The notes below the pieces were generated by a model. It worked only from the letters and a program-made list of their open reading frames with translations. It was not told the origin of the DNA and made no database searches. Of a stretch of 64,000 bases of DNA, positions 11,612 to 59,402 are shown one piece after another; position 1 is the first letter of the stretch, and the number at the start of each line of letters is the position of its first letter. This DNA comes from an uncultured Alphaproteobacteria bacterium (lineage in GTDB: Bacteria > Pseudomonadota > Alphaproteobacteria > HIMB59 > GCA-002718135), in NCBI GenBank assembly GCA_902623585.1, contig CACNUO010000001.1:72314-136313 (forward strand), given 5' to 3'. A program made the position numbers and the translations under genes.

Positions 11612-12553
11612 TTACCTTTCTATAATTCTTTTTTTTATAATTCCAGCAATTCTTTTGCTTTCCTCTAGTTTCGTATATGTCCAATTTTCTAATTTATCTA
11701 AAGTATTAAAATCTCTTGTTATATTCATTTTTTTAAATTCTTCATGGAATCTTATAAATCTTTTACTTTTTCTCTTCATTGGTAATTGATAAACATAAAT
11801 TGGCTTACCAGATATACTTGCTTCAGAAATCATAGAGGTTGAGTCAGAAGTAATAATAAAATAACTGGAATTATAAATAGCAAATTCGTATGGATTCTTT
11901 CCTTCTCCAAGCCAAAGTGTAGATATAGTGCTCAATTCTTTTTTCAAAATATGTTTAATTTCTTTATTAGTTCTTCTCGAGGTAAGAACTAAAATTTCAT
12001 TATTATGAGACTTTAATTTTTTTATTCTTTTGCAAAGATCTAATGTATTTTCTTTTGAGAAATTATAGTGATTATTTTCACCCCCAATAATAAATGTAAC
12101 CAAATTTTTTGTATTAATTCCATAATGATTTTTCAAATTATTAAATTGTTTAAAATGATGTAATGCACCCGAAGAATTAATTATATTGTCTCCATATAAA
12201 CCATCATGATTTGGAGCTATAACATAAGAAAAGTTTTCTGAAGAAATTTTTGGGTTTTGAATATGAATATTAATAATTTTTGGATATTTTTTTTTAAGAT
12301 AGATTGATAGGTAAACACTTTTTCTTCCACAACTGATAACTAAATCAGGTATTTCATCTATTGGTAACTTATTTTTAAATATCCAATTAAAAATAGGAAG
12401 TATCCCAGGCTGTAATTTATTCCAAGGAAAAATTATTTCAGTTTTAATTTCCTTTATATTTACACTCAATTCATTAGCCAGACCTTTAGTCTGACTTATC
12501 ATTCCTTGTGAACCATCAGTTAATGACCAAATTTTAGGATTGTCTATATTCAA
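11612..12553 (-). CDS. ELM1/DUF1022-family protein (bacterial homologue of mitochondrial fission ELM1; glycosyltransferase-like)
   Basis: 313 aa. The N-terminal KIWSLTDGSQGMISQTKGLANEL pattern and the length fit PF06258-type proteins common in alphaproteobacteria. Confidence 0.55.
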   Translation of the reverse strand: MNIDNPKIWSLTDGSQGMISQTKGLANELSVNIKEIKTEIIFPWNKLQPGILPIFNWIFKNKLPIDEIPDLVISCGRKSVYLSIYLKKKYPKIINIHIQNPKISSENFSYVIAPNHDGLYGDNIINSSGALHHFKQFNNLKNHYGINTKNLVTFIIGGENNHYNFSKENTLDLCKRIKKLKSHNNEILVLTSRRTNKEIKHILKKELSTISTLWLGEGKNPYEFAIYNSSYFIITSDSTSMISEASISGKPIYVYQLPMKRKSKRFIRFHEEFKKMNITRDFNTLDKLENWTYTKLEESKRIAGIIKKRIIER

Positions 12554-19775: not shown

Positions 19776-21935
19776 ATGGCAAAAAAGAAAAAAAAAGTAG
19801 TTAAGAAAAAAACTAAAGTATCTAAAAATAAAGTATTAGCTAAAAAGAATTTAAAAAAGAAAAACACTAAAGTAAAATCTAATAAAAATTCTAAACCTAA
19901 AATTCTTAAGAAGGCAAAAAAATCAGTTGCAAAAAAAGTCAGTAAAAAATCTGATTTTAAAAATTTAAAAGATCAAAAATTTAAAAAAATACCTAAAGCA
20001 ATTTCAGGTTTTGAAGATAAGATAAAAGAAATTTTTACAAAATTAATCAATAAACATAAAGTTGATGGAATTTACACCAAAAAAATAATTGAGAAAGCGA
20101 TTCCAAAAAAACTTAGACTTGAAGAAAATATATTAAAATTTGAAAATTTTGTTAAATCTAATGATATCAAAATCTATTCTGATGAAGAAGCTCAAGAATT
20201 AATTTCATTAGCTAAAGATCAAGCAAATAAATCTGAAGAAGGTTCTGAAGATCAAGAAAAAAAACAAACAGGAAAAACTGATGACCCTGTAAGATTATAT
20301 CTGAGAGATATGGGTGCAGTAGAGCTTCTTAGTCGTGAGGGTGAGATTGCAATTGCTAAAAGAATAGAAGCTGGAAGAGAAAAGATGATAGGAGCAATTT
20401 GTGAAAGTCCAATGACAATTAGATCAATAATAAATTGGAAAGATGCAATAAAAGATGGGACAATGTTATTAAGAGACATAGTTGATTTAGAAGCTACTTA
20501 CGACATGTCTGATATTTCTGACTCAAAACTTGATGATACATTTAAATTAATTGAAAGTGGGGCAGATGAAAAAAAAGATGATAAGAAAAAAAATCAAACT
20601 GAAGATAATAACGAGGAAAATAGCGATGGTGATCAGCAACAAGATGATGATGATGATGATAGTTTAAACGTTTCTTTAGCAGCAATGGAAGAGAAACTTA
20701 AGCCGAAAGTCTTAAACGACTTTAATGATATAACTAAACTATTCAAAAAACTTCAAAAACATAGTCAAGAGTTAATAAATGCAGATAAAAAAAATGAGAA
20801 AAACTACAATATCTTAGAAAAAAAATATCTAAAAATTCAAAAAGAAATGGTTGCTGCTATGAAAGCTGTTCATTTTAACTCAACAACAATTGAAGCACTT
20901 ATGGAAGCATTATATGAATTAAATAAAAAGCTCCTTTTACGTGAAGGTAAAATGCTTCGTATGGCAACAGGTGCTGGAGTGAAAAGATAAGATTTTGTTT
21001 CTCAATACTTAAATTTCAACTTTGAAAAAAATTGGATTCAAAGTCTTTTAGCTACTAAGGATAAAAATTGGGAGAAGTTTATTAATAGAAATCATATTGA
21101 AATTAATAAAAATATTGAAGAAATTCGAGAAATACAATCTGCTTCTGAGCTACCTTTGTCCGAATTTAGAAGAATAGTTGGTACTGTACAACAAGGGGAA
21201 AGATCTGCAAACAGAGCTAAAAAAGAGATGATTGAATCTAATTTAAGATTGGTTATTTCGATTGCAAAAAAATATACAAATAGAGGTCTTCAGTTTCTAG
21301 ATTTGATTCAAGAAGGCAATATCGGTCTTATGAAAGCAGTTGATAAATTTGAATATCGAAGAGGTTATAAATTTTCAACTTATGCAACTTGGTGGATTAG
21401 ACAAGCAATTACAAGATCTATTGCAGATCAAGCTAGAACAATAAGAATACCAGTGCACATGATAGAAACAATTAATAAAATTGTTAGAACTACAAGACAA
21501 ATAATGTCTGAGATTGGCAGAGAGCCTACCCCCAATGAGTTAGCAGATAGACTTCATATGCCATTAGATAAGGTTAAAAAAGTTCTAAAAATTGCTAAAG
21601 AACCAATAAGTTTAGAAACTCCAGTAGGTGACGAAGAGGATAGTTCTCTAGGTGATTTTATAGAAGATAAAAATGCTCTTATCCCAATAGATGCAGCTGT
21701 AAAAAGTTCCCTACGTGATACTACTACAAGAATACTGTCTTCTCTAACACCAAGGGAAGAAAGAGTTTTAAGAATGAGATTTGGTATTGGAATGAACAGC
21801 GATCATACTTTGGAAGAAGTTGGTCAACAATTTAGTGTTACAAGAGAGAGAATAAGACAAATTGAAGCTAAAGCATTAAGAAAATTAAAACATCCAACTA
21901 GAGCTAGAAAGTTAAAAACATTTCTTGATGAATAA
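19776..21935 (+). CDS. rpoD: RNA polymerase sigma-70 (RpoD), disrupted as written by one in-frame TAA at 20988-20990
   Basis: Track ORFs 19776..20990 and 21156..21935 share one frame. The 165 nt between them is stop-free and collinear with RpoD (..GVKR*DFVSQY...[10 protein letters not shown]..). Region 1.2 reads [11 protein letters not shown] and region 2 reads [59 protein letters not shown]. Regions 3 and 4 are intact. Confidence 0.92.
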
Positions 21936-25752: not shown

Positions 25753-27237
25753 ATGAAAGTTAGTTTTATTGGAGCTGGGAGTATAGGATTTACTCAAACA
25801 TTAGTAAGAGATCTGCTAAAGGTTCCTGAATTTCATGATACAAATTTTTTTTTTCACGATATTTCTGAAAAAAATTTAGATTTTGTTTCAAAACTTATCC
25901 AAAAAGATATTGATGCTAATAATCTTCCTGCAACTATTGAACAATCAACCGATAGAAAAAAAGCATTAGAGGGAGCAAAATATATAATTAATTGTACACG
26001 CATTGGAGGACTAGAAGCATTTGAGCACGATATTAATATTCCTCTTCAATATGGTGTAGATCAGTGTGTAGGGGACACCATTTGCGCTGGAGGAATTCTA
26101 TATGGTCAAAGAAATATTCCCCAAACCTTAAATTTTTGTAAAGATATAAAATCTTATTCGGATTCAAATGCTTTGTTTTTGAATTATTCAAATCCAATGG
26201 CCATGAACACTTGGGCAGCAATATCAGAAGCAAAAGTAAATACAGTTGGGCTATGTCACGGTGTTCAAGGTGGCGCAAAACTAATCTCTAAAGCATTAGG
26301 ATCTGAAAACTCAAAAGATCTTGAATATATGTGTAGCGGAATTAATCATATGACCTGGTACATAGATCTAAAATTCAAAGGAAAAAAAGTATCAAAAGAA
26401 GAACTTATAGATGCATTGGAAAGACATCCAGAAATTTCTAAACAAGAAAAAGTAAGAATTGATATTTTAAAAAGATTTGGTTTATTTTCTACTGAAAGTA
26501 ATGGCCATTTAAGTGAGTATCTTCCATGGTATAGAAAAAGAGTTGAGGATATTCCTAAATGGATAGATTTGTCAAATTGGATACATGGCGAAACGGGAGG
26601 ATATTTAAGAGTTACATCAGAGAAAAGAAATTGGTTTGAAGAAGACTTTGAAAAATTTTTAAGTGAGTCGGGTATCGATTTAAATAATCATAAAAGATCT
26701 TCTGAGCATGGTAGTTATATAATTGAGTCAATTGAAACAAATAGACCTTATCGTGGTCATTTTAATGTAGTTAATAATGGTACTATAACAAATTTACCAG
26801 ATGACTGTGTTATTGAAAGTACTGGAACAGTTGATAAAGATGGAATTAAAATGATTAAAGGTGTTGAGCTTCCAATGGCCTGTGCATCACTCTGTAGAAC
26901 ATCGATAGATGTTCAGAGAATGGCAGTCAAAGCTGCAATAGACGGAGATTTAAATTTATTAAAATTAGCAGTTTTGCAAGATCCATTAGTTAGTGCAGTT
27001 TGTTCACCTGATGAAGTTTGGTCTATGGTAGATGAAATGATTGTAGCTCAATCTAAATGGCTTCCTCAATATCAAAACGAAATTGAACTAGCTCTAGAGA
27101 GAATTAAAAATTCTAATGTAAAAAAGAAAAATTTTAAAGGTGCTGCAAGAATGAAAACTAGATCTCCTGAAGAACTAAAAAATGATGAAGAATCTTCTTT
27201 ACTTGTGGAAGCACAGGCATTCGAATTTGATGCTTAA
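25753..27237 (+). CDS. Glycoside hydrolase family 4 paralogue (AglA/MelA-like) with a ~40-aa charged C-terminal extension
   Basis: 494 aa with FIGAGSIGFTQ, VGDTICAGGILYGQRNIP, GLCHGVQGGAKL and SGINHMTWY. Confidence 0.82.
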   Translation: MKVSFIGAGSIGFTQTLVRDLLKVPEFHDTNFFFHDISEKNLDFVSKLIQKDIDANNLPATIEQSTDRKKALEGAKYIINCTRIGGLEAFEHDINIPLQYGVDQCVGDTICAGGILYGQRNIPQTLNFCKDIKSYSDSNALFLNYSNPMAMNTWAAISEAKVNTVGLCHGVQGGAKLISKALGSENSKDLEYMCSGINHMTWYIDLKFKGKKVSKEELIDALERHPEISKQEKVRIDILKRFGLFSTESNGHLSEYLPWYRKRVEDIPKWIDLSNWIHGETGGYLRVTSEKRNWFEEDFEKFLSESGIDLNNHKRSSEHGSYIIESIETNRPYRGHFNVVNNGTITNLPDDCVIESTGTVDKDGIKMIKGVELPMACASLCRTSIDVQRMAVKAAIDGDLNLLKLAVLQDPLVSAVCSPDEVWSMVDEMIVAQSKWLPQYQNEIELALERIKNSNVKKKNFKGAARMKTRSPEELKNDEESSLLVEAQAFEFDA

Positions 27238-27240
27238 GCA

Positions 27241-28770
27241 ATGAAAGAAATAAAAAATGTCGTAATTTTAGGTGGAGGAACTGCTGGATGGCTAGCTGCA
27301 TATATATTAAGTGACTTTTTTTATTCTAACAAACTTAATACAAATGTTAAAATAATAGAGTCTTCTAAAATACCAACAATTGGTGTTGGAGAGGGGACTA
27401 CCAGCATATTTTATGAATTTTTAAAAAAATATAATTTAGATGAATCTGATTTTTTGAAAGAAACAAAAGCTACATTAAAATTTGGAATAGTACATAAAGA
27501 CTGGAAAGAATTAGGATATACTTATTATGGACCTATAGATGATCCGCAATTAATTGCTCCAAAAAATAAACCAGAAAATTTTGAATATTTAAAAGCATAT
27601 GCTGTCGCTGCTGGAAGACCAGTTTCTGAAATTCATTTGCATACAATGCTTATGCAAAATAAAAAAGTACCTTATACTTTTAAAAATAATAATTTAGAAC
27701 TAATAAGCCCATTTTATTATGCATATCATTTTGATAATTCTCAAGTAGCAAGCTATTTAAATAAAAGATCTAAAAATATTGAGATTATTGATGATATTTA
27801 CACATCTTCAACACAAAATGTAGATGGAACAATTAGATCTCTATGTTTTGAAAGTGGTTTGGAATTGGATGTTGATTTAGTTATTGATTGTAGTGGTTTT
27901 AAAAAATTGATTATTGGAGATGTGTTCAAAACCAAATGGATCTCTTATCAAGATAATCTTCCTGTAAATAGAGCGATGCCATTTTTTTTAGATATAAAAG
28001 AAGAAAACTACATTAATTATACATTAGCCTGGGCCCAAAAGTATGGATGGATGTGGCAAATTCCTACACAAGAAAGAATTGGTGCTGGTTATGTTTATTG
28101 TGATCAATTTATCTCACCTGATCAAGCACAAGAAGAAATAGAAAAAGTTCTTGGACACAAAATTGAACCAAGACGAGACATTAAGTTTAATAGTGGTAGG
28201 TTAGAAAAATATTGGGTTAAAAATTGTTTAGCTATCGGTTTATCATCTGGTTTCCTTGAACCCTTAGAAGCTACTTCTATTCATAGTACTTTGATTCAAA
28301 TCATTTTATTTGCAACTGAATATCTTAAGAAAGAAATGGACTTTAATAATGAAGAATTAATCTCTAATTTTAATAATCGAATTGGACGACAATTTGATGA
28401 TTTCAAAACCTTTTTAAATATGCACTATGTTTCCAAAAGAAGAGATTCAAAATTTTGGCAATACGTTGCAGATGAATGTATAAGCGAAGATACAAAAAAA
28501 TTTATTTCTTTATGGCAAGATGAACTTCCAAGTCTTGATCATTTTGATGATTATCTCTCTGGCCTTCCTCATGTACAATCACAGTTATACTACCCAGTTG
28601 TAGATGGTCTTGGTCTATTAAGTAAGGAATCCGCGAGAGAACAAATGAGCAAATATGATTTACGATCAACATCAAGAAAATATTACAATGATTTTTCTGA
28701 GAAATTTAACGAAATAATCAAGGATTCCCTTACTCACAGTCAATATATTAATCTTTCAGTGAATTCTTAG
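27241..28770 (+). CDS. Flavin-dependent halogenase family protein (tryptophan-halogenase-like)
   Basis: 509 aa with FAD motifs GGGTAGW and GVGEGT, the GWMWQIP (WxWxIP) signature, a Lys in KATLKF that aligns by eye with PrnA K79, and FLEPLEATS that aligns with PrnA E346. Confidence 0.78.
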   Translation: MKEIKNVVILGGGTAGWLAAYILSDFFYSNKLNTNVKIIESSKIPTIGVGEGTTSIFYEFLKKYNLDESDFLKETKATLKFGIVHKDWKELGYTYYGPIDDPQLIAPKNKPENFEYLKAYAVAAGRPVSEIHLHTMLMQNKKVPYTFKNNNLELISPFYYAYHFDNSQVASYLNKRSKNIEIIDDIYTSSTQNVDGTIRSLCFESGLELDVDLVIDCSGFKKLIIGDVFKTKWISYQDNLPVNRAMPFFLDIKEENYINYTLAWAQKYGWMWQIPTQERIGAGYVYCDQFISPDQAQEEIEKVLGHKIEPRRDIKFNSGRLEKYWVKNCLAIGLSSGFLEPLEATSIHSTLIQIILFATEYLKKEMDFNNEELISNFNNRIGRQFDDFKTFLNMHYVSKRRDSKFWQYVADECISEDTKKFISLWQDELPSLDHFDDYLSGLPHVQSQLYYPVVDGLGLLSKESAREQMSKYDLRSTSRKYYNDFSEKFNEIIKDSLTHSQYINLSVNS

Positions 28771-28843
28771 ATTAACTGAATAACATTTATAATTGTTATT
28801 GATTTTGAGTAAAAAAAACATTTTACTTTTAGTAAAATTATTC

Positions 28844-28853
28844 AAAGGGAGGA
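28844..28853 (+). promoter_or_regulatory. Strong Shine-Dalgarno block AAAGGGAGGA, 4 nt upstream of the SBP start
   Basis: The identical 10-mer precedes all three ABC substrate-binding genes in the window. Confidence 0.6.
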
Positions 28854-28857
28854 TAAA

Positions 28858-30885
28858 ATGGGTATTGAAACCAAATTTACTTTCAAGAGTAAAGCAGCAA
28901 GTTTACTTGTAGGTGTTAGCATGGTTGCTATGACTTCTGGTGCTAGTGCTCTTGAAACTCTACCACCTGATAAAAGTATGTCAGGTATAGAAGTTGAATT
29001 AGTTGGAAGAGATGATTTATATTCTTATAAAAGTTGTGATAGTTATAATGAAGCTCCTTTAACTGCAGCATATGTTGAAGCTGGAAAGCTACCACCAGTA
29101 GCTGAGAGACTTCCAAAAACACCAATGATGATGTCAAAAGCTCAAATGGTTGATGGAATTGGTGATTATGGCGGAACATTTCGTCATGTTATTGGAGGAA
29201 GACCTGAAGGTTGGAACTGGATGGCTGGACAACATCAAGGTTGGGGTGGCATTAGCATGCAGTTAATGCAATCATTAACAAGACTTGGTCCACTATGGCA
29301 AGTTAAACCTGAAGAAGCTTTACCTCTTCCAAACCTAGCAACTGACTGGGAGTTTAATAGCGATCGTACTACTTTAACTATGAATTTAGTTGAAGGTGTA
29401 AAATGGTCTGATGGAGATCCATTTGATACTGAAGATATTGATTTTTGGTGGAACGATAATGTTCAAAATGCAAATGTAAACTCGAGGCTTCCAAAGGATG
29501 CTCTTGGTGCAGGAACGACAGTTGATATTTTAGGACCATATTCGTTTAGGTTTAATTTTGACTCTCCAAAAGGTAATGCTGTTCTATCACAGCTTGCGCA
29601 TATGGGAGGTGCTCCTGGGCCTTCTCACATTTTAAAACCACATCACCCAGATTATAATAGTGATGCAACTTACGATACATATACTATGGCTTTACCACCT
29701 GATGAAGTGCCTATAGCAACACTTGGAGCTTATGTTCCAGTTGCTCATAAAATTGACGAACTGGTGGTGATGAAAAGAAATCCTTACTATTGGAAAGTTG
29801 ATGAAGAATGTAATCAACTTCCATATTACCATGAAACGATTTATAAATTAACCACATGGGATGATAGAACTACGCAAGCTCTAGCAGGAACTGGTGATTA
29901 TTCTAATATGGAAAATCCTGGTAACTACGTTGAAGCCTTAAAGCAAAATAAAGATCCTAACTCGCCTGTTAGATCAGTATTTGGTTCTAGATCTTTGACA
30001 TGGAAATTATATGTAAATCTTTCCTCTGAATTTGGAGCTCAAGATGATTATGATAGAGAGTTAAGAAAACTTTTCAGAAACTTGGAGTTTAGAAAAGCAC
30101 TTTCTCACGCAATGGATAGAGACACTATGGGTCAATCTGTTGCGAGAGGTCCTTTCTTCCATCCTCATGCTGGAGGATTTTCTGCAGGATCTCCTTTTCA
30201 TCGCTTTGAGGATTCTATTTATTATGGATACAATGTTGATGGTGCCAATTCAATCTTAGATGGTTTAGGTCTTATTGATAGTGATGGAAACGGTATTAGA
30301 AATTTTCCTAATGGAGGAGAAGATATAGCGTTGGACATCCTTTTCAGTAATGAAAGATCCACTGATATTAAAATTGGGGATAGTATAGTTCCAATGTTTG
30401 AAGCGGTAGGATTAAAACCTATATTAAAACCTTCAAACGATACGGCAGCAATTACTGATGCGGGAAATTGGAATTTATATATTAATAGACACAATTGGCT
30501 TGTTGTAACGAAAAACATGGCTGATGAGTTACCAATAACTCCTGAAAATCCTGTTCAACATAAAAGTAATGAAGGTGATTTACTTCCATTTGAAAAAACT
30601 TTAGCTAATTTAGGTAACGACATTCTTGCTACTAATGATTTGAAAGTTGTTGCAGAAAAAGCTTACGAAATTCAAAAGGTAAGTACTGAAAATGTATATT
30701 CAATAGGATTAATACAAACACCTGCTGCACTTTTAATTAACAAAAGGATAAAGAATAATCATCCAGGCACTCCAGTATATATGTACGAATGGGGTGAAGA
30801 TGCAATTTTTAGGGAAAGACTTTATACCCCTAAAGCTGATCAAATAGATGAGTTCTTACCTGGTGTTTTGGCTGAATATAAATAA
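28858..30885 (+). CDS. ABC transporter substrate-binding protein, family 5 (Opp/Dpp/AgpA-type), large 675-aa form with signal peptide
   Basis: It has a signal peptide (...MTSGASA/LE), SBP_bac_5-like length and order, and sits next to DppB/C/DF-type genes. Confidence 0.85.
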   Translation: MGIETKFTFKSKAASLLVGVSMVAMTSGASALETLPPDKSMSGIEVELVGRDDLYSYKSCDSYNEAPLTAAYVEAGKLPPVAERLPKTPMMMSKAQMVDGIGDYGGTFRHVIGGRPEGWNWMAGQHQGWGGISMQLMQSLTRLGPLWQVKPEEALPLPNLATDWEFNSDRTTLTMNLVEGVKWSDGDPFDTEDIDFWWNDNVQNANVNSRLPKDALGAGTTVDILGPYSFRFNFDSPKGNAVLSQLAHMGGAPGPSHILKPHHPDYNSDATYDTYTMALPPDEVPIATLGAYVPVAHKIDELVVMKRNPYYWKVDEECNQLPYYHETIYKLTTWDDRTTQALAGTGDYSNMENPGNYVEALKQNKDPNSPVRSVFGSRSLTWKLYVNLSSEFGAQDDYDRELRKLFRNLEFRKALSHAMDRDTMGQSVARGPFFHPHAGGFSAGSPFHRFEDSIYYGYNVDGANSILDGLGLIDSDGNGIRNFPNGGEDIALDILFSNERSTDIKIGDSIVPMFEAVGLKPILKPSNDTAAITDAGNWNLYINRHNWLVVTKNMADELPITPENPVQHKSNEGDLLPFEKTLANLGNDILATNDLKVVAEKAYEIQKVSTENVYSIGLIQTPAALLINKRIKNNHPGTPVYMYEWGEDAIFRERLYTPKADQIDEFLPGVLAEYK

Positions 30886-40716: not shown

Positions 40717-42543
40717 ATGTCAGTTGTGAGTAATAGTAGAAGATTTAGACCCGAAAAGGTTGCGCCGTATTTTTTTATATCGCCATTTTATATTATTTTT
40801 ACAATTTTTTTTCTTTTACCTACCATAGCTTCTTTTATTTTAGCTTTTTACAAATGGAAAGGTGTAAAAGCTCCTAAACCTAGGGGGTGGGGAAATTTTG
40901 AATATTTATTCTTTAAAGACCAAAACTTTTGGGAAACTTTCCAAAATACAGTATTTTATTCTGCTGGCAGTGTATTTATTACTATTCCTCTAGCTCTTTT
41001 ATTAGCTCTTGCTCTAAATAGTCATAGCTTAAAACTAAAACCTTTTTGGCGTTTAGTATTTTTCTCACCGATTGTTACTTCTGTTGTTGCGGCTGCATTA
41101 ACTTTCAAGATGATATTAAATAGTGAATTTGGATTACTTAATTATGTAATTGGATTTATTGGAATTGAACCAATCAATTGGGTTGAGTCTTCAGCAACAT
41201 CAAAGTGGTCTGTCATGATGTTAGTAATATGGAGATGGACTGGCTTGACCTGTATTTATTTTTTAGCTGGTTTGCAATTTATAGACAGAACTTTGTATGA
41301 AGCTGCAAAAATAGATGGTGCAACGGCTTGGCATCAATTTTGGTATGTTACTCTTCCTCAACTAGCACCAGTAACACTATTTGTTTGTATAATTGTTTCT
41401 ATTGGCTCATTCCAGATATTCGAGGATGTATTTGTTATGTATAGTGGAAACGATGTTCCAACTCATGCTAAATCAATGGTTGTTTACATGATGGAAAGAG
41501 GTTTCAATCAACTTAAATTAGGATTTGGTTCTTCTATTGGTGTATTTATGTTCATCTGTATTTTAGCTATATCATTATTTCAATTTAGATCATTTGCATC
41601 CAATTTAGACCAGGACGCTAAAAAAAGTTTTATTGAGAGAATTTTATCTCCTATTATAGATTTTATTGCTAATATTTTTCCAATAGAGTCTTCTAGTTCT
41701 AGTAAAAAATCTTTATCTCCAAAAATTGGTAAATATTCATTAAATTTTATAATTACAATTATAGGTTTGATAACACTTATACCTTATGCTTTCATGCTTA
41801 CCTCCTCAGTAAAATCAACAGCAGAAATAATGGCATGGCCTCCAATAATGTGGTCAAAAAGTCCTAATTGGGAAAATGTAACAAAACTGTTTACTGAGTT
41901 TCCAGCAAGTTTATGGATATTCAATTCCTTCTTTGTTGCTATTGCTGTTACTATTTTAACAATTTTTTTATGTACTTTAGCCGGGTACGCATTTGCAAAA
42001 TATAACTTTAAGGGAAAAAACAGGCTTTTCATATTTATGGTAGCAACAGCAATGATACCTTTTCCAATTATAATGATACCTCTTTATGTTTTAGTGGGTA
42101 GAATGGGAATGAATGATACTTTATCGGGACTAATCATTCCTTTTGTTGCTCCTGCTATAGGAATTTTTATGATGAGACAATTCATAACGTCTGTTCCTGA
42201 TGAATTAATTCAAGCAGCAAGATCAGATGGGGCTGGTGAGTTTAGAATTTTTTGGCAAATAGTTGTCCCTCTTGTTTGGCCTGGTATTGCCACTCTTGCA
42301 ATAATTACATTTGTTAATTCATGGAATAGTTTCTTATGGCCTCTTATAATATTACGGGATGACCTTAATTACACTATCCCTCTCGGCATGACGGAAGTAT
42401 TTGCGCTTAGTGTTGGACAAGAGCCGCAGTATGGACAAGCTATGGCTTTTGCAACCTTAACGACAATTCCAATTATAGTTATTTTTTCTTTTGTTCAAAA
42501 ATATTACATTGCAGGCTTATCAGCTGGAGCTGTTAAAGGTTAA
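40717..42543 (+). CDS. Fused two-domain sugar ABC permease (UgpA/MalF-like N-half plus UgpE/MalG-like C-half)
   Basis: 608 aa with two EAA loops (EAAKIDGATAWHQFWYVTLPQL and QAARSDGAGEFRIFWQIVVPL) joined by a Ser-rich linker (PIESSSSSKKSLSP). Confidence 0.8.
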   Translation: MSVVSNSRRFRPEKVAPYFFISPFYIIFTIFFLLPTIASFILAFYKWKGVKAPKPRGWGNFEYLFFKDQNFWETFQNTVFYSAGSVFITIPLALLLALALNSHSLKLKPFWRLVFFSPIVTSVVAAALTFKMILNSEFGLLNYVIGFIGIEPINWVESSATSKWSVMMLVIWRWTGLTCIYFLAGLQFIDRTLYEAAKIDGATAWHQFWYVTLPQLAPVTLFVCIIVSIGSFQIFEDVFVMYSGNDVPTHAKSMVVYMMERGFNQLKLGFGSSIGVFMFICILAISLFQFRSFASNLDQDAKKSFIERILSPIIDFIANIFPIESSSSSKKSLSPKIGKYSLNFIITIIGLITLIPYAFMLTSSVKSTAEIMAWPPIMWSKSPNWENVTKLFTEFPASLWIFNSFFVAIAVTILTIFLCTLAGYAFAKYNFKGKNRLFIFMVATAMIPFPIIMIPLYVLVGRMGMNDTLSGLIIPFVAPAIGIFMMRQFITSVPDELIQAARSDGAGEFRIFWQIVVPLVWPGIATLAIITFVNSWNSFLWPLIILRDDLNYTIPLGMTEVFALSVGQEPQYGQAMAFATLTTIPIIVIFSFVQKYYIAGLSAGAVKG

Positions 42544-53187: not shown

Positions 53188-55407
53188 ATGACAGAAAATT
53201 CGCAAAATTATCTTGATTTATTAAATAAAGAGCAAAGAAATGCTGTCCAGCAAACTGATGGTTCATTACTTGTTTTGGCTGGGGCTGGGAGTGGAAAAAC
53301 TAGGGTATTAACCTTTAGAATCTTAAATATATTAATTAAAAAACTTGCAACTCCTAGACAAATTTTAGCAGTCACTTTTACTAATAAAGCCGCAAGTGAA
53401 ATGAAGTCACGAATCGGAGATGCATTGAATTTTCCAATAGATAATATGTGGGTAGGAACATTTCACTCTTTATCACTAAGAATACTAAGACAACATTACG
53501 AGGAAGTTGGATTAAGAAAAAATTTTTTAATTATTGATACAGATGATCAATTAAAATTAGTTAAAAATATTTGTGATGTAGAAAAAATAGATACAAAAGA
53601 AACTTCGCCTAAATATTATTTATCAGCAATAGATAATTTAAAAAACAAAGGAATAGGCCCTAATGAATTGAGTGAAAATAAATATAGGAAGAATGACAAA
53701 GAAATTAGAAAAATCTATAGTATTTACCAGTCAGAACTTCTTCGATTAAATAGTGTTGATTTTGGTGATTTAATTTTATTTTGTATTAAAATTTTTCAAA
53801 AAAATAATAATATATTATTGAAATATCAAAATATTTTTAAATATATTCATGTAGATGAATATCAAGATATAAATCCAATACAACAAGAATGGATTCATTT
53901 TTTATATAAAGGAAATAAAAATATATGTTGTGTTGGTGATGATGATCAATCAATATACTCTTGGAGAGGAGCTGATGTTAATAATTTATTAAATTTTGAA
54001 AAAAATTTTGAGAATGTAACAATTGTTAGACTAGAACAAAATTATAGATCAACAAGAAATATATTAAGTTGTGCATCAACTCTTATATCTAAAAATAAAG
54101 GAAGATATGGAAAAGAATTATGGAGTAAAAATCAGATTGGTGAAAAAATTACAATTAATGGATTTTGGGAAACAAAAGAAGAGTCTGTTTTTGTAACAGA
54201 CAAAATAGAAAATATCATAAAAGATAAAATAAATTTAAGCGAGATCTCAATCTTATTTAGAGTTGCTGCACATACGAGATCGTTTGAAGAAAGATTAATA
54301 AATCTTGGACTTCCTTATAAAATAATTGGAGGTTTACGATTTTATGAAAGAAAAGAAATCAAAGATATTATTGCGTATTTAAGATTAACAAATAATTTAT
54401 CTGATGATTTAGCTTTTGAAAGAATAATTAATGTACCTAAAAGAGGAATAGGAAAATCAACAGTTAGTAAGATCAGTAGCTATGCTAGAATGAATAATAT
54501 TTCTTTATTTGAATCTGCACAACAACTGACATTTAAAAGTAATTCTAAAGCTAAGGGTGAATTATATAATTTTACTGATAACATTCTGAAATGGCAAAAG
54601 GTTAAAAAGAAATTTGACCATATTGAATTAGCTAAAGTAATAATAGAAGACTCGGGTTATTTAGATTATTTAAAAAAAGAGGAAGAGAACTCAAATAAAC
54701 CTGACAGCCTATCAAGAATAGACAATTTAAATGAATTTATTGAAAGTTTAAAAGAATTTGAAAACATAGAAGGTTTTTTGGAACATGTATCTTTGGTTAT
54801 GGAAAACATAACAAATACTTCAGAAGAAACACTTACTCTTATGACAATGCATGCCGCTAAAGGGTTAGAGTTCGATTATGTATTTCTTGCTGGTTGGGAG
54901 GAAGGGGTTTTTCCAAGTCAAAGATCAATAGAGGAGTCAGGTAATCAGGGATTAGAAGAAGAAAGAAGATTGGCATATGTCGCATTAACGAGAGCAAGAA
55001 AAAAAATTTATATTACTTATGTAAATCAAAATAGATACTCCTTTGCATCACATGATTATAATTTACCTTCGAGATTTATAAGCGAGCTTCCAGAAGATAA
55101 AGTAGAAATAAATGATTCTAAATATATTCAGGATAATAACTTTTTAGATAATTTTTTAGAAACTGATTCATTTAGTGAAGAAATTATTACTCCAGGAAGA
55201 AAAAGATTATTAGAAAACTCAAAAAAAAAATAATATTGACTGGGATTTTAATCAAGATTTTGAATATGAAGTTGATATTTCAAAGGGAAAAAATGTTTAT
55301 CATCAAAAATTTGGTAATGGAAAAAATTATCAAATTAGATGGTGATAAAGCTTTAATTGATTTTGAGAATTTTTCTTCAAAAAAAATATATTTAAAGTTC
55401 TTGAAAA

Positions 55408-55418
<11 letters not shown>
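53188..55418 (+). CDS. uvrD: UvrD/PcrA-type ATP-dependent DNA helicase II; the 3' end is disrupted as written by two +1 frameshifts (A10 at 55221-55230, A6 at 55321-55326)
   Basis: GAGSGKT, DEYQD and the remaining helicase motifs sit in the 681-aa ORF. The conserved C-terminal tail continues in frame +1 (NNIDWDFNQDFEYEVDISKGKNVYHQKFGNGK) and then frame +2 (IIKLDGDKALIDFENFSSKKIYLKFLKIID*). Confidence 0.85.
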
Positions 55419-58221
<2,803 letters not shown>

Positions 58222-58254: not shown

Positions 58255-58999
58255 ATGAAATATATTACAAAATATAAATCGCCCAATTATAATTCAAGAC
58301 AGAATTCAAAAATTAAGCTAATTATAATTCATTATACAGCTTTAAAAAATATTGAAGATGCCATTTCTTATTTGTGTAATAAAGAAAAGAAAGTTAGTTC
58401 ACACTATCTTATTTCACAAAATGGGACTGCGTATAATTTAGTTGATGATAAATTTAGAGCATGGCATGCAGGGAAAAGCTTTTGGCAAGGGATTACAGAT
58501 ATAAACTCAGTTTCAATTGGAATAGAGCTAGATTTTAGCCCTTATGGAACTAACAACAATTTTTCTTTTAAAATGATGTTTTCATTAAAACTGCTACTTA
58601 ATAAAATTCAAAAAAAATATAAGATTAGTAAAAAGAATGTTTTGGCCCATTCAGATATTGCACCTTTTAGAAAGAAAGACCCTGGAAAATACTTTCCATG
58701 GAAATCACTTTCTAAATCAAATATTGTACAGAATTTTCAAAGTTTAAGTTATAGCGATAAGGAAATAATTGAAAAATGGTTTAATATTAATAATATTAAT
58801 TCAAAAAAAAGAGAAAATAATTTTTGCATTATCATTAATTGGATACGATACTCGTCAAGTATATAAGAAGCCTAGACTTTATAATAAACTGATAAGTGCT
58901 TACAATCTTAGATATCTAAATCATGTAGATAAAAAAAATAATTTAATTTATGACGCTGTAATTAAACATCTATTCAATTTTATATTGACGAAAAATTAA
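58255..58999 (+). CDS. N-acetylmuramoyl-L-alanine amidase (AmpD/amidase_2 family); disrupted as written by a +1 frameshift in A8 at 58803-58810
   Basis: The amidase_2 core (IIIHYTA..., SSHYLISQNG..., AWHAGKSFW, IGIELD, AHSDIAP.RKKDPG) lies in ORF 58255..58866. The conserved C-terminal part (..LIGYD...ISAYNLRYLNH...) continues in ORF 58769..58999, one frame over. Confidence 0.75.
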
Positions 59000-59018
59000 A
59001 TAGATCTATTAGTTGATT

Positions 59019-59354
59019 AGATGGTGTGATGATCGCTTGAGTAATCAAGAGGAAAGTCCGGGCTCCACTGGAAAAGAAACCAGGTAACACCTGGCAAGTG
59101 AAAGCTTAGGGAAAGTGCAACAGAAAATATACCGCCTGCAAAGGTAAGGGTGAAATGGTGGGGTAAGAGCTCACCGCTTTTTTGGCAACAAAAGAGGCTT
59201 TGCAAACCCTTTTTGGAGCAAGGTCAAATAGGAAAGGCAATCAGTTCCAGCTGAGTCTTTCGGGTAGACTGCTTGAAACAGATGGTGACATTTGTTCTAG
59301 ATTAATGATCATCAATTTTTTATAAAATTACAGAACCCGGCTTATGCACCATCT
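59019..59354 (+). ncRNA. rnpB: RNase P RNA, bacterial type A
   Basis: The universally conserved P4 strands GAGGAAAGTCCGGGCTCC (5') and ACAGAACCCGGCTTA (3') are present. Terminal P1 pairing is AGATGGTG / CACCATCT. Length about 336 nt. Confidence 0.9.
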
Positions 59355-59402
59355 TTATATTTATTGAGAACATAAATAGAACATTTATCGTAATTTCATA
59401 TA

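Follow-up and report, generated by a model that had tools for sequence, protein, structure and literature searches.

The DNA analysed here is a single window of 64 kb from a marine bacterium of SAR11 type, with 29% G+C and a very compact organization (~93% coding), whose plus strand carries at positions 19776-21935 the gene rpoD for the primary sigma-70 factor, as a frame of 720 codons with one interruption. An earlier note on this DNA had reported a single in-frame TAA at 20988-20990, and translation of the frame bears this out: the TAA, which occupies codon 405, is the only internal stop between 19776 and 21935. The two open reading frames given for the gene in the mechanical ORF list, 19776-20990 (404 aa, starting with ATG) and 21156-21935 (259 aa, starting with TTG), share the identical frame, and the 165 nt between them are free of any extra stop, as had also been stated, with a translation that ends in ...PLSEFRR. 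The N-terminal 404 codons (19776-20987), all of them 5' of the stop, open with a lysine-rich tail. The Pfam assignments place region 1.2 here at aa 170-202 (Sigma70_r1_2), while aa 212-404 match Sigma70_ner over profile positions 2-161 of 210, or roughly three quarters of the non-conserved region. The TAA is followed by 55 sense codons (20991-21155) that encode the remainder of the non-conserved region, are colinear with intact homologues and contain zero ATG, GTG or TTG start codons. The first possible restart is a TTG leucine codon at 21156, and from there to the end of the gene (21156-21935) the Sigma70_r2, Sigma70_r3 and Sigma70_r4 domains are found. The same assignments agree with the claim that the break sets regions 1.1 and 1.2 and the non-conserved region apart from regions 2-4.

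With the order 1.2, non-conserved region, 2, 3 and 4, the gene has the complete domain set of a group 1 (primary) sigma-70 factor, and departs from that group only in lacking an uninterrupted open reading frame, on account of the TAA at codon 405. The product joined across the stop could be aligned over its entire length with RpoD chains of solved structure (7ye1_F, E = 6.6e-201); this alignment places the stop column within the non-conserved region, ~70 residues N-terminal to region 2.1, at a position occupied by Gly in 7ye1_F and by Ala in 7xya_F, the two chains with the best match. The location of the gene is also orthologous, since it lies next to dnaG in the order yqeY-dnaG-rpoD-MBL, which is identical to that of relatives. 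No exact record of the 404-aa N-terminal product as a called protein was found. A separate observation concerns the amino terminus: the first ~70 residues (19776-19990, plus strand) are extremely rich in lysine, and the Sigma70_r1_1 domain was undetected in the RpoD of the window, region 1.1 being acidic in well-studied sigma-70 proteins. Judged from their similar lengths, this basic N-terminal tail appears to be common to the Pelagibacteraceae homologues.

The residue replaced by the stop was established by comparison with relatives. The 120 closest RpoD proteins, labelled "Pelagibacteraceae bacterium" where a source is given, are 89-99% identical to the joined product and are all full length (707-736 aa). 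In their alignment the stretch between the two open reading frames is collinear with RpoD, as the earlier note had proposed, and the stop column is occupied by E in 110 sequences, D in 6, Q in 2, N in 1 and K in 1. At the DNA level the four closest relatives were compared, namely L001, a Tara Oceans contig with 97.3% identity across 6.1 kb; L002 and L003, NCBI assemblies with WGS-style CAC... contig accessions, which we take to resemble those of marine single-cell genomes; and L004, another Tara contig. All four have GAA at the site, so the lesion amounts to one G-to-T transversion at 20988, and the orthologues, together with the predominance of Glu in the protein alignment, confirm that TAA stands in place of GAA by a one-base change.

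Searches for the stop allele in larger collections returned no second instance. A degenerate DNA pattern, in which TAA or TAG (TAR) was required at the codon and synonymous variation was allowed in the flanks, matched the window itself and gave 0 matches in 185,579 species-representative genomes (genome_contigs) and 0 matches in the JGI metagenome contigs (metagenome_contigs). The window's own haplotype was sought separately with a 33-mer that left the first base of the stop free (N) and included the lineage-specific TAC found six codons further 3'; it gave 0 matches in both collections, an uninformative outcome. Likewise, no split rpoD was detected among relatives, either in the 120 homologues or in the two contig collections. 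As far as these sequence comparisons reach, the rpoD stop is a G-to-T change private to this sequence record; as a verified discrete lesion, it is not a matter to which a test of chance occurrence applies.

The substitution pattern of the gene was assessed on both sides of the stop. The comparison of rpoD with L001 yields 36 codons with synonymous and 5 with non-synonymous differences, one in-frame codon indel and the stop. When changes were polarised by means of the four relatives, 11 synonymous and 3 non-synonymous ones, plus the stop, were specific to the window; all 3 non-synonymous changes fall in the variable N-terminal third of the gene, and the region 3' of the stop accumulated 7 synonymous and 0 non-synonymous changes. 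The RpoD of the window has 1 residue unseen in the 120 homologues and 0 at invariant columns, which is below the median of the relatives, and UvrD, encoded elsewhere in the window, also has 1 residue unseen in its 120 homologues and 0 at invariant columns, at or below the relatives' median. Since private amino-acid changes are not raised in either protein, substitution errors are not common in the record. None of the signs of a decaying pseudogene (extra stops, frameshifts or an excess of non-synonymous changes) was found in rpoD. Judging by these codon changes, the gene is under strong purifying selection on either side of the stop and shows no decay, which would make the stop either extremely recent or not real.

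Both rpoD and ligA, a second gene of the window discussed below, are essential in model bacteria. A passage in PMC13198564, citing Giovannoni 2005, gives sigma-70 and sigma-32 as the only sigma factors in SAR11, and no second sigma-70 or rpoD-like sequence was found within the 64-kb window. A true rpoD null allele would be lethal, so that the TAA, if real, would need to represent a private dead-end mutation or else be rescued; no rescue signal for the stop was found in the window.

The most general form of rescue, a genome-wide reassignment of TAA to a sense codon, has a negligible probability and was excluded, as 36 of the 52 genes of the window, rpoD included, end in TAA where their homologues end, which also upholds the remark that neighbouring genes use TAA as a normal stop. 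Furthermore, the release factor RF1 and its methyltransferase PrmC are intact (876-2775), and no other compared gene of the window has an in-frame TAA. Frameshifting and hopping were rejected as well, the former together with the latter being unneeded in a gene whose frame is the same before and after the stop, and hopping also lacking a matching take-off and landing codon around AGA-TAA-GAT.

A real TAA could otherwise be tolerated through local readthrough, in which near-cognate tRNAs, or a suppressor tRNA with its gene elsewhere in the genome, would allow enough full-length sigma-70 to be made. The site lies inside the sigma non-conserved region, and its column accepts E, D, Q, N and K in homologues; because Q and K are tolerated, the product of near-cognate readthrough would probably work. 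The signal in question is, however, UAA followed by G, which is an efficient terminator. In genes of Salmonella (Typhi, Paratyphi A) disrupted by an in-frame stop or a frameshift, low-level synthesis of full-length protein has been documented, with readthrough occurring mainly at UAG followed by C (PMC9122581), a context unlike that of rpoD. These pseudo-pseudogenes resemble the present case in having an in-frame stop with the rest of the gene intact, whereas they concern non-essential genes of low expression (PMC9122581) and the gene affected here encodes the sole housekeeping sigma factor, necessarily abundant, which low-level readthrough is unlikely to supply. In addition to the frequent use of TAA as a terminator in the window, the RF1 gene (prfA, 876-1952) is intact. 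No stimulatory RNA structure was detected in the 141 nt around and after the stop (z = 0.40, with 128 of 200 shuffles folding at least equally well), and the stop is not a conserved one, as it would be in programmed readthrough, but a sense codon in 120/120 homologues. The only tRNAs encoded in the window are Val-GAC and Met-CAT. Altogether, we consider readthrough very unlikely, and the proposal of the earlier note in this regard is unsupported.

The same note had also envisaged a functional split sigma with reinitiation at TTG 21156. Such a two-piece factor would consist of an N-terminal chain (regions 1.1 and 1.2 and most of the non-conserved region) and a C-terminal chain (regions 2-4) produced by restart at TTG 21156 or at ATG 21228, and the two chains would join non-covalently on the core polymerase, or the C-terminal one would act alone. 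The break does lie in a poorly conserved sigma region (Sigma70_ner profile position 161 of 210), and complete regions 2, 3 and 4 are retained 3' of the stop, under purifying selection. However, the first in-frame start, TTG 21156, is preceded by ...tctgagctacct, in which there is no Shine-Dalgarno sequence, and the next one, ATG 21228, is directly abutted by AAAGAG, again with no Shine-Dalgarno sequence; moreover, TTG 21156 is an ordinary Leu codon common to L001 and L004, whose genes are intact. Compared with the four relatives, no window-specific substitution creates a start codon or a ribosome-binding site, and no promoter-like site or terminator was found on the plus strand at the junction. 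Region 1.2 and region 2 would be on separate chains; according to a review (PMC2613000), region 1.2 interacts with the non-template strand immediately downstream of the -10 element and has a stabilising effect on the open complex. Naturally split genes are expected to have an own start with a ribosome-binding site for the second piece and a split that is conserved in the clade; rpoD has neither, and no relative was seen with a split gene. We therefore regard a functional split sigma as scarcely credible, and find the proposed restart unsupported.

A sigma gene in two coding pieces is known from Bacillus subtilis, in which sigK is divided into spoIVCB and spoIIIC by the 48-kb skin element and is rejoined by site-specific DNA recombination. 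In contrast to sigK, the rpoD of the window contains no inserted DNA and follows the gene of its intact relatives base by base, with one base differing, and an intervening element of the sigK/skin type was accordingly rejected. In sum, the existence of a real TAA in a living cell, by way of either efficient UAA readthrough or two cooperating polypeptides, is highly improbable; if the TAA were real and tolerated, this would be, as far as known, the first case in nature of a primary sigma factor made in two pieces or dependent on readthrough, and it would bear on the amount of sigma-70 required by a slow-growing streamlined cell.

The rpoD stop is accompanied in the same window by further gene-breaking lesions, which were located by comparing frame switches with L005, a syntenic NCBI contig. 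The true uvrD gene spans 53188-55418 (plus strand), and its open reading frame in the window has 681 aa, whereas nearly all of the 120 homologues have 742 aa; the missing C-terminus is encoded in two other frames and exactly matches the sequence of the relatives. The responsible +1 frameshifts are located at an A10 run at 55221-55230 (A9 in L005) and at an A6 run at 55321-55326 (A5 in L005). The NAD-dependent DNA ligase gene ligA, on the minus strand at ~55408-57422, has an open reading frame of 568 aa vs 670 aa in the relative, and is broken at two plus-strand A9 runs, 55629-55637 and 55720-55728 (each A8 in L005). An Amidase_2 gene at 58255-58999 (plus strand), with 203 aa vs 248 aa in the relative, carries a frameshift at or beside an A8 run at 58803-58810 (A7 in L005), although at ~70% identity to the relative the placement is less certain in this gene. 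The ~30 codons between the two ligA frameshifts were also unusually divergent (56% identity). The earlier note mentions none of these homopolymer frameshifts.

All five frameshifts are +1, occur at or beside plus-strand A-runs and are contained in 3.6 kb (55.2-58.8 kb). Of the 80 homopolymer runs in the window that reach the census cut-off, most lie outside this cluster and are unaffected. The 33 genes compared with L002 and L005 are full length outside the lesions, bar one that ends ~6 codons early, and the genes elsewhere in the window are full length wherever NCBIfam has an end-to-end model. The breaks of ligA and uvrD, clustered and confined to a single strand, have the appearance of a technical artefact in a stretch of poor support rather than of biology. 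As these five A-run frameshifts belong to the same window as rpoD, the record holds uncorrected lesions of error type in addition to the stop. The cluster does not directly explain the latter, which is a substitution and lies 34 kb away.

Biological frameshifts of a comparable kind are known in the AT-rich endosymbionts Buchnera and Blochmannia, where frameshifts in poly(A) tracts are rescued by transcriptional slippage, and are scattered and conserved between populations or species (PMC3017870). The lesions of uvrD, ligA and the amidase gene are similar to these in being single-base indels of A-runs in otherwise intact genes, essential ones among them, in DNA of low G+C content, and differ from them in being clustered, in being absent from the nearest relative and in affecting two genes with two frameshifts each. 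In any event, slippage cannot rescue the stop of rpoD.

Two minor features may be added to this survey of gene ends and homopolymers. The RNase P RNA gene (class A, 307 bits, 59017-59360, plus strand) has a T6 run at ~59316 vs T5 in L005, which may be a further homopolymer length difference, in this case non-coding, just past the frameshift cluster. The Elm1-like gene at 11612-12553 (minus strand) ends ~6 codons before its L002 counterpart, which overlaps the next gene; this early end probably reflects normal variability of the C-terminus rather than a lesion.

The stop could also be a genuine nonsense allele with no rescue and no adaptive value, very recent and private to the sampled cell, clone or sub-population; the cell could have been dead or dying, or the consensus could have picked up a minority allele. 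The record does show T at 20988, and the absence of decay 3' of the stop fits a mutation that is only generations old equally well as an error; uvrD, which encodes a repair helicase, is broken too, which might in principle be the sign of a damaged or mutator cell. Conversely, six lesions in 64 kb, with rpoD and ligA among them, are far above the expectation for a living streamlined cell, and the five frameshifts, with their common sign, their link to A-runs and their confinement to one strand and a short interval, look technical. Moreover, the TAA allele was unseen in other assemblies in the scans of genome and metagenome contigs. A captured nonsense allele, another of the four possibilities listed in the earlier note, is one that we rate as unlikely.

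The remaining one of those possibilities, an error in the record, is the one we favour: with a probability of roughly 0.7, the rpoD TAA is a private single-base artefact of this record. This reading follows from a lesion that is one base in size and unique, from strong purifying selection on both of its sides, from the absence of accommodating signals and from the presence in the window of five more lesions of a type that sequencing or amplification generates. The real rpoD of the lineage would then have GAA at this codon and would yield a normal full-length sigma-70. The wrong base could have originated from the amplification of a damaged single template, from a base-call or consensus error, or from a poorly covered position. 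G-to-T changes are the signature of 8-oxoguanine damage, and amplification from a single template fixes such damage in all copies. In the coding DNA of the window, 5.6% of all possible substitutions create a stop, and this fraction rises to 14% for G-to-T or C-to-A changes. A benchmark of a marine single-cell workflow on cultures found 5.0 mismatches and 3.0 indels per 100 kb (PMC6122165); at this rate, ~0.17 nonsense codons are expected per 64-kb window and ~3.5 per 1.3-Mb genome, and hence a stop in some essential gene of an assembly of this sort is unremarkable. Two considerations speak against an error: the rpoD substitution belongs to a different error class from the frameshifts and lies outside their patch, and substitution errors are not pervasive in the record, given that private changes are not elevated in rpoD and uvrD. 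From the balance of these observations we infer that it is the record, and not the cell, that carries the wrong base.

Considered in this way, the rpoD stop is not a new system. Its closest counterparts are the error-made pseudogenes of draft, single-cell or metagenome-assembled genomes, which it resembles in affecting a single, isolated base of an essential gene whose conservation is otherwise perfect, in being unique to one record and in having homopolymer frameshifts elsewhere on the contig, at a lesion density for the window that is of the order of single-cell benchmarks (PMC6122165). It differs from them in that the rpoD lesion, for which error is a deduction, is a substitution while the other lesions of the window are homopolymer insertions. 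The practical value of the finding is one of quality control, as at least six lesions break genes within the 64 kb of this record (one in rpoD, two in uvrD, two in ligA and one in the amidase gene), and its apparent pseudogenes should not be read as SAR11 gene loss unless the reads are checked.

Two further features of the window are reported here in their own right. In the segment 9782-31936, protein identity to L002 ranges from 87% (DnaG, YqeY) to 99-100%, the latter in the interval 25753-30885, which encodes a glycoside hydrolase of family 4, a Trp-halogenase-like protein and a substrate-binding protein; this mosaic of identities suggests recent recombination. On the plus strand at 40717-42543, an open reading frame of 608 aa is GlcT/UgpA-like over aa 5-294 and GlcU/UgpE-like over aa 343-608, and appears to be a fused gene for two sugar ABC permease subunits in tandem.
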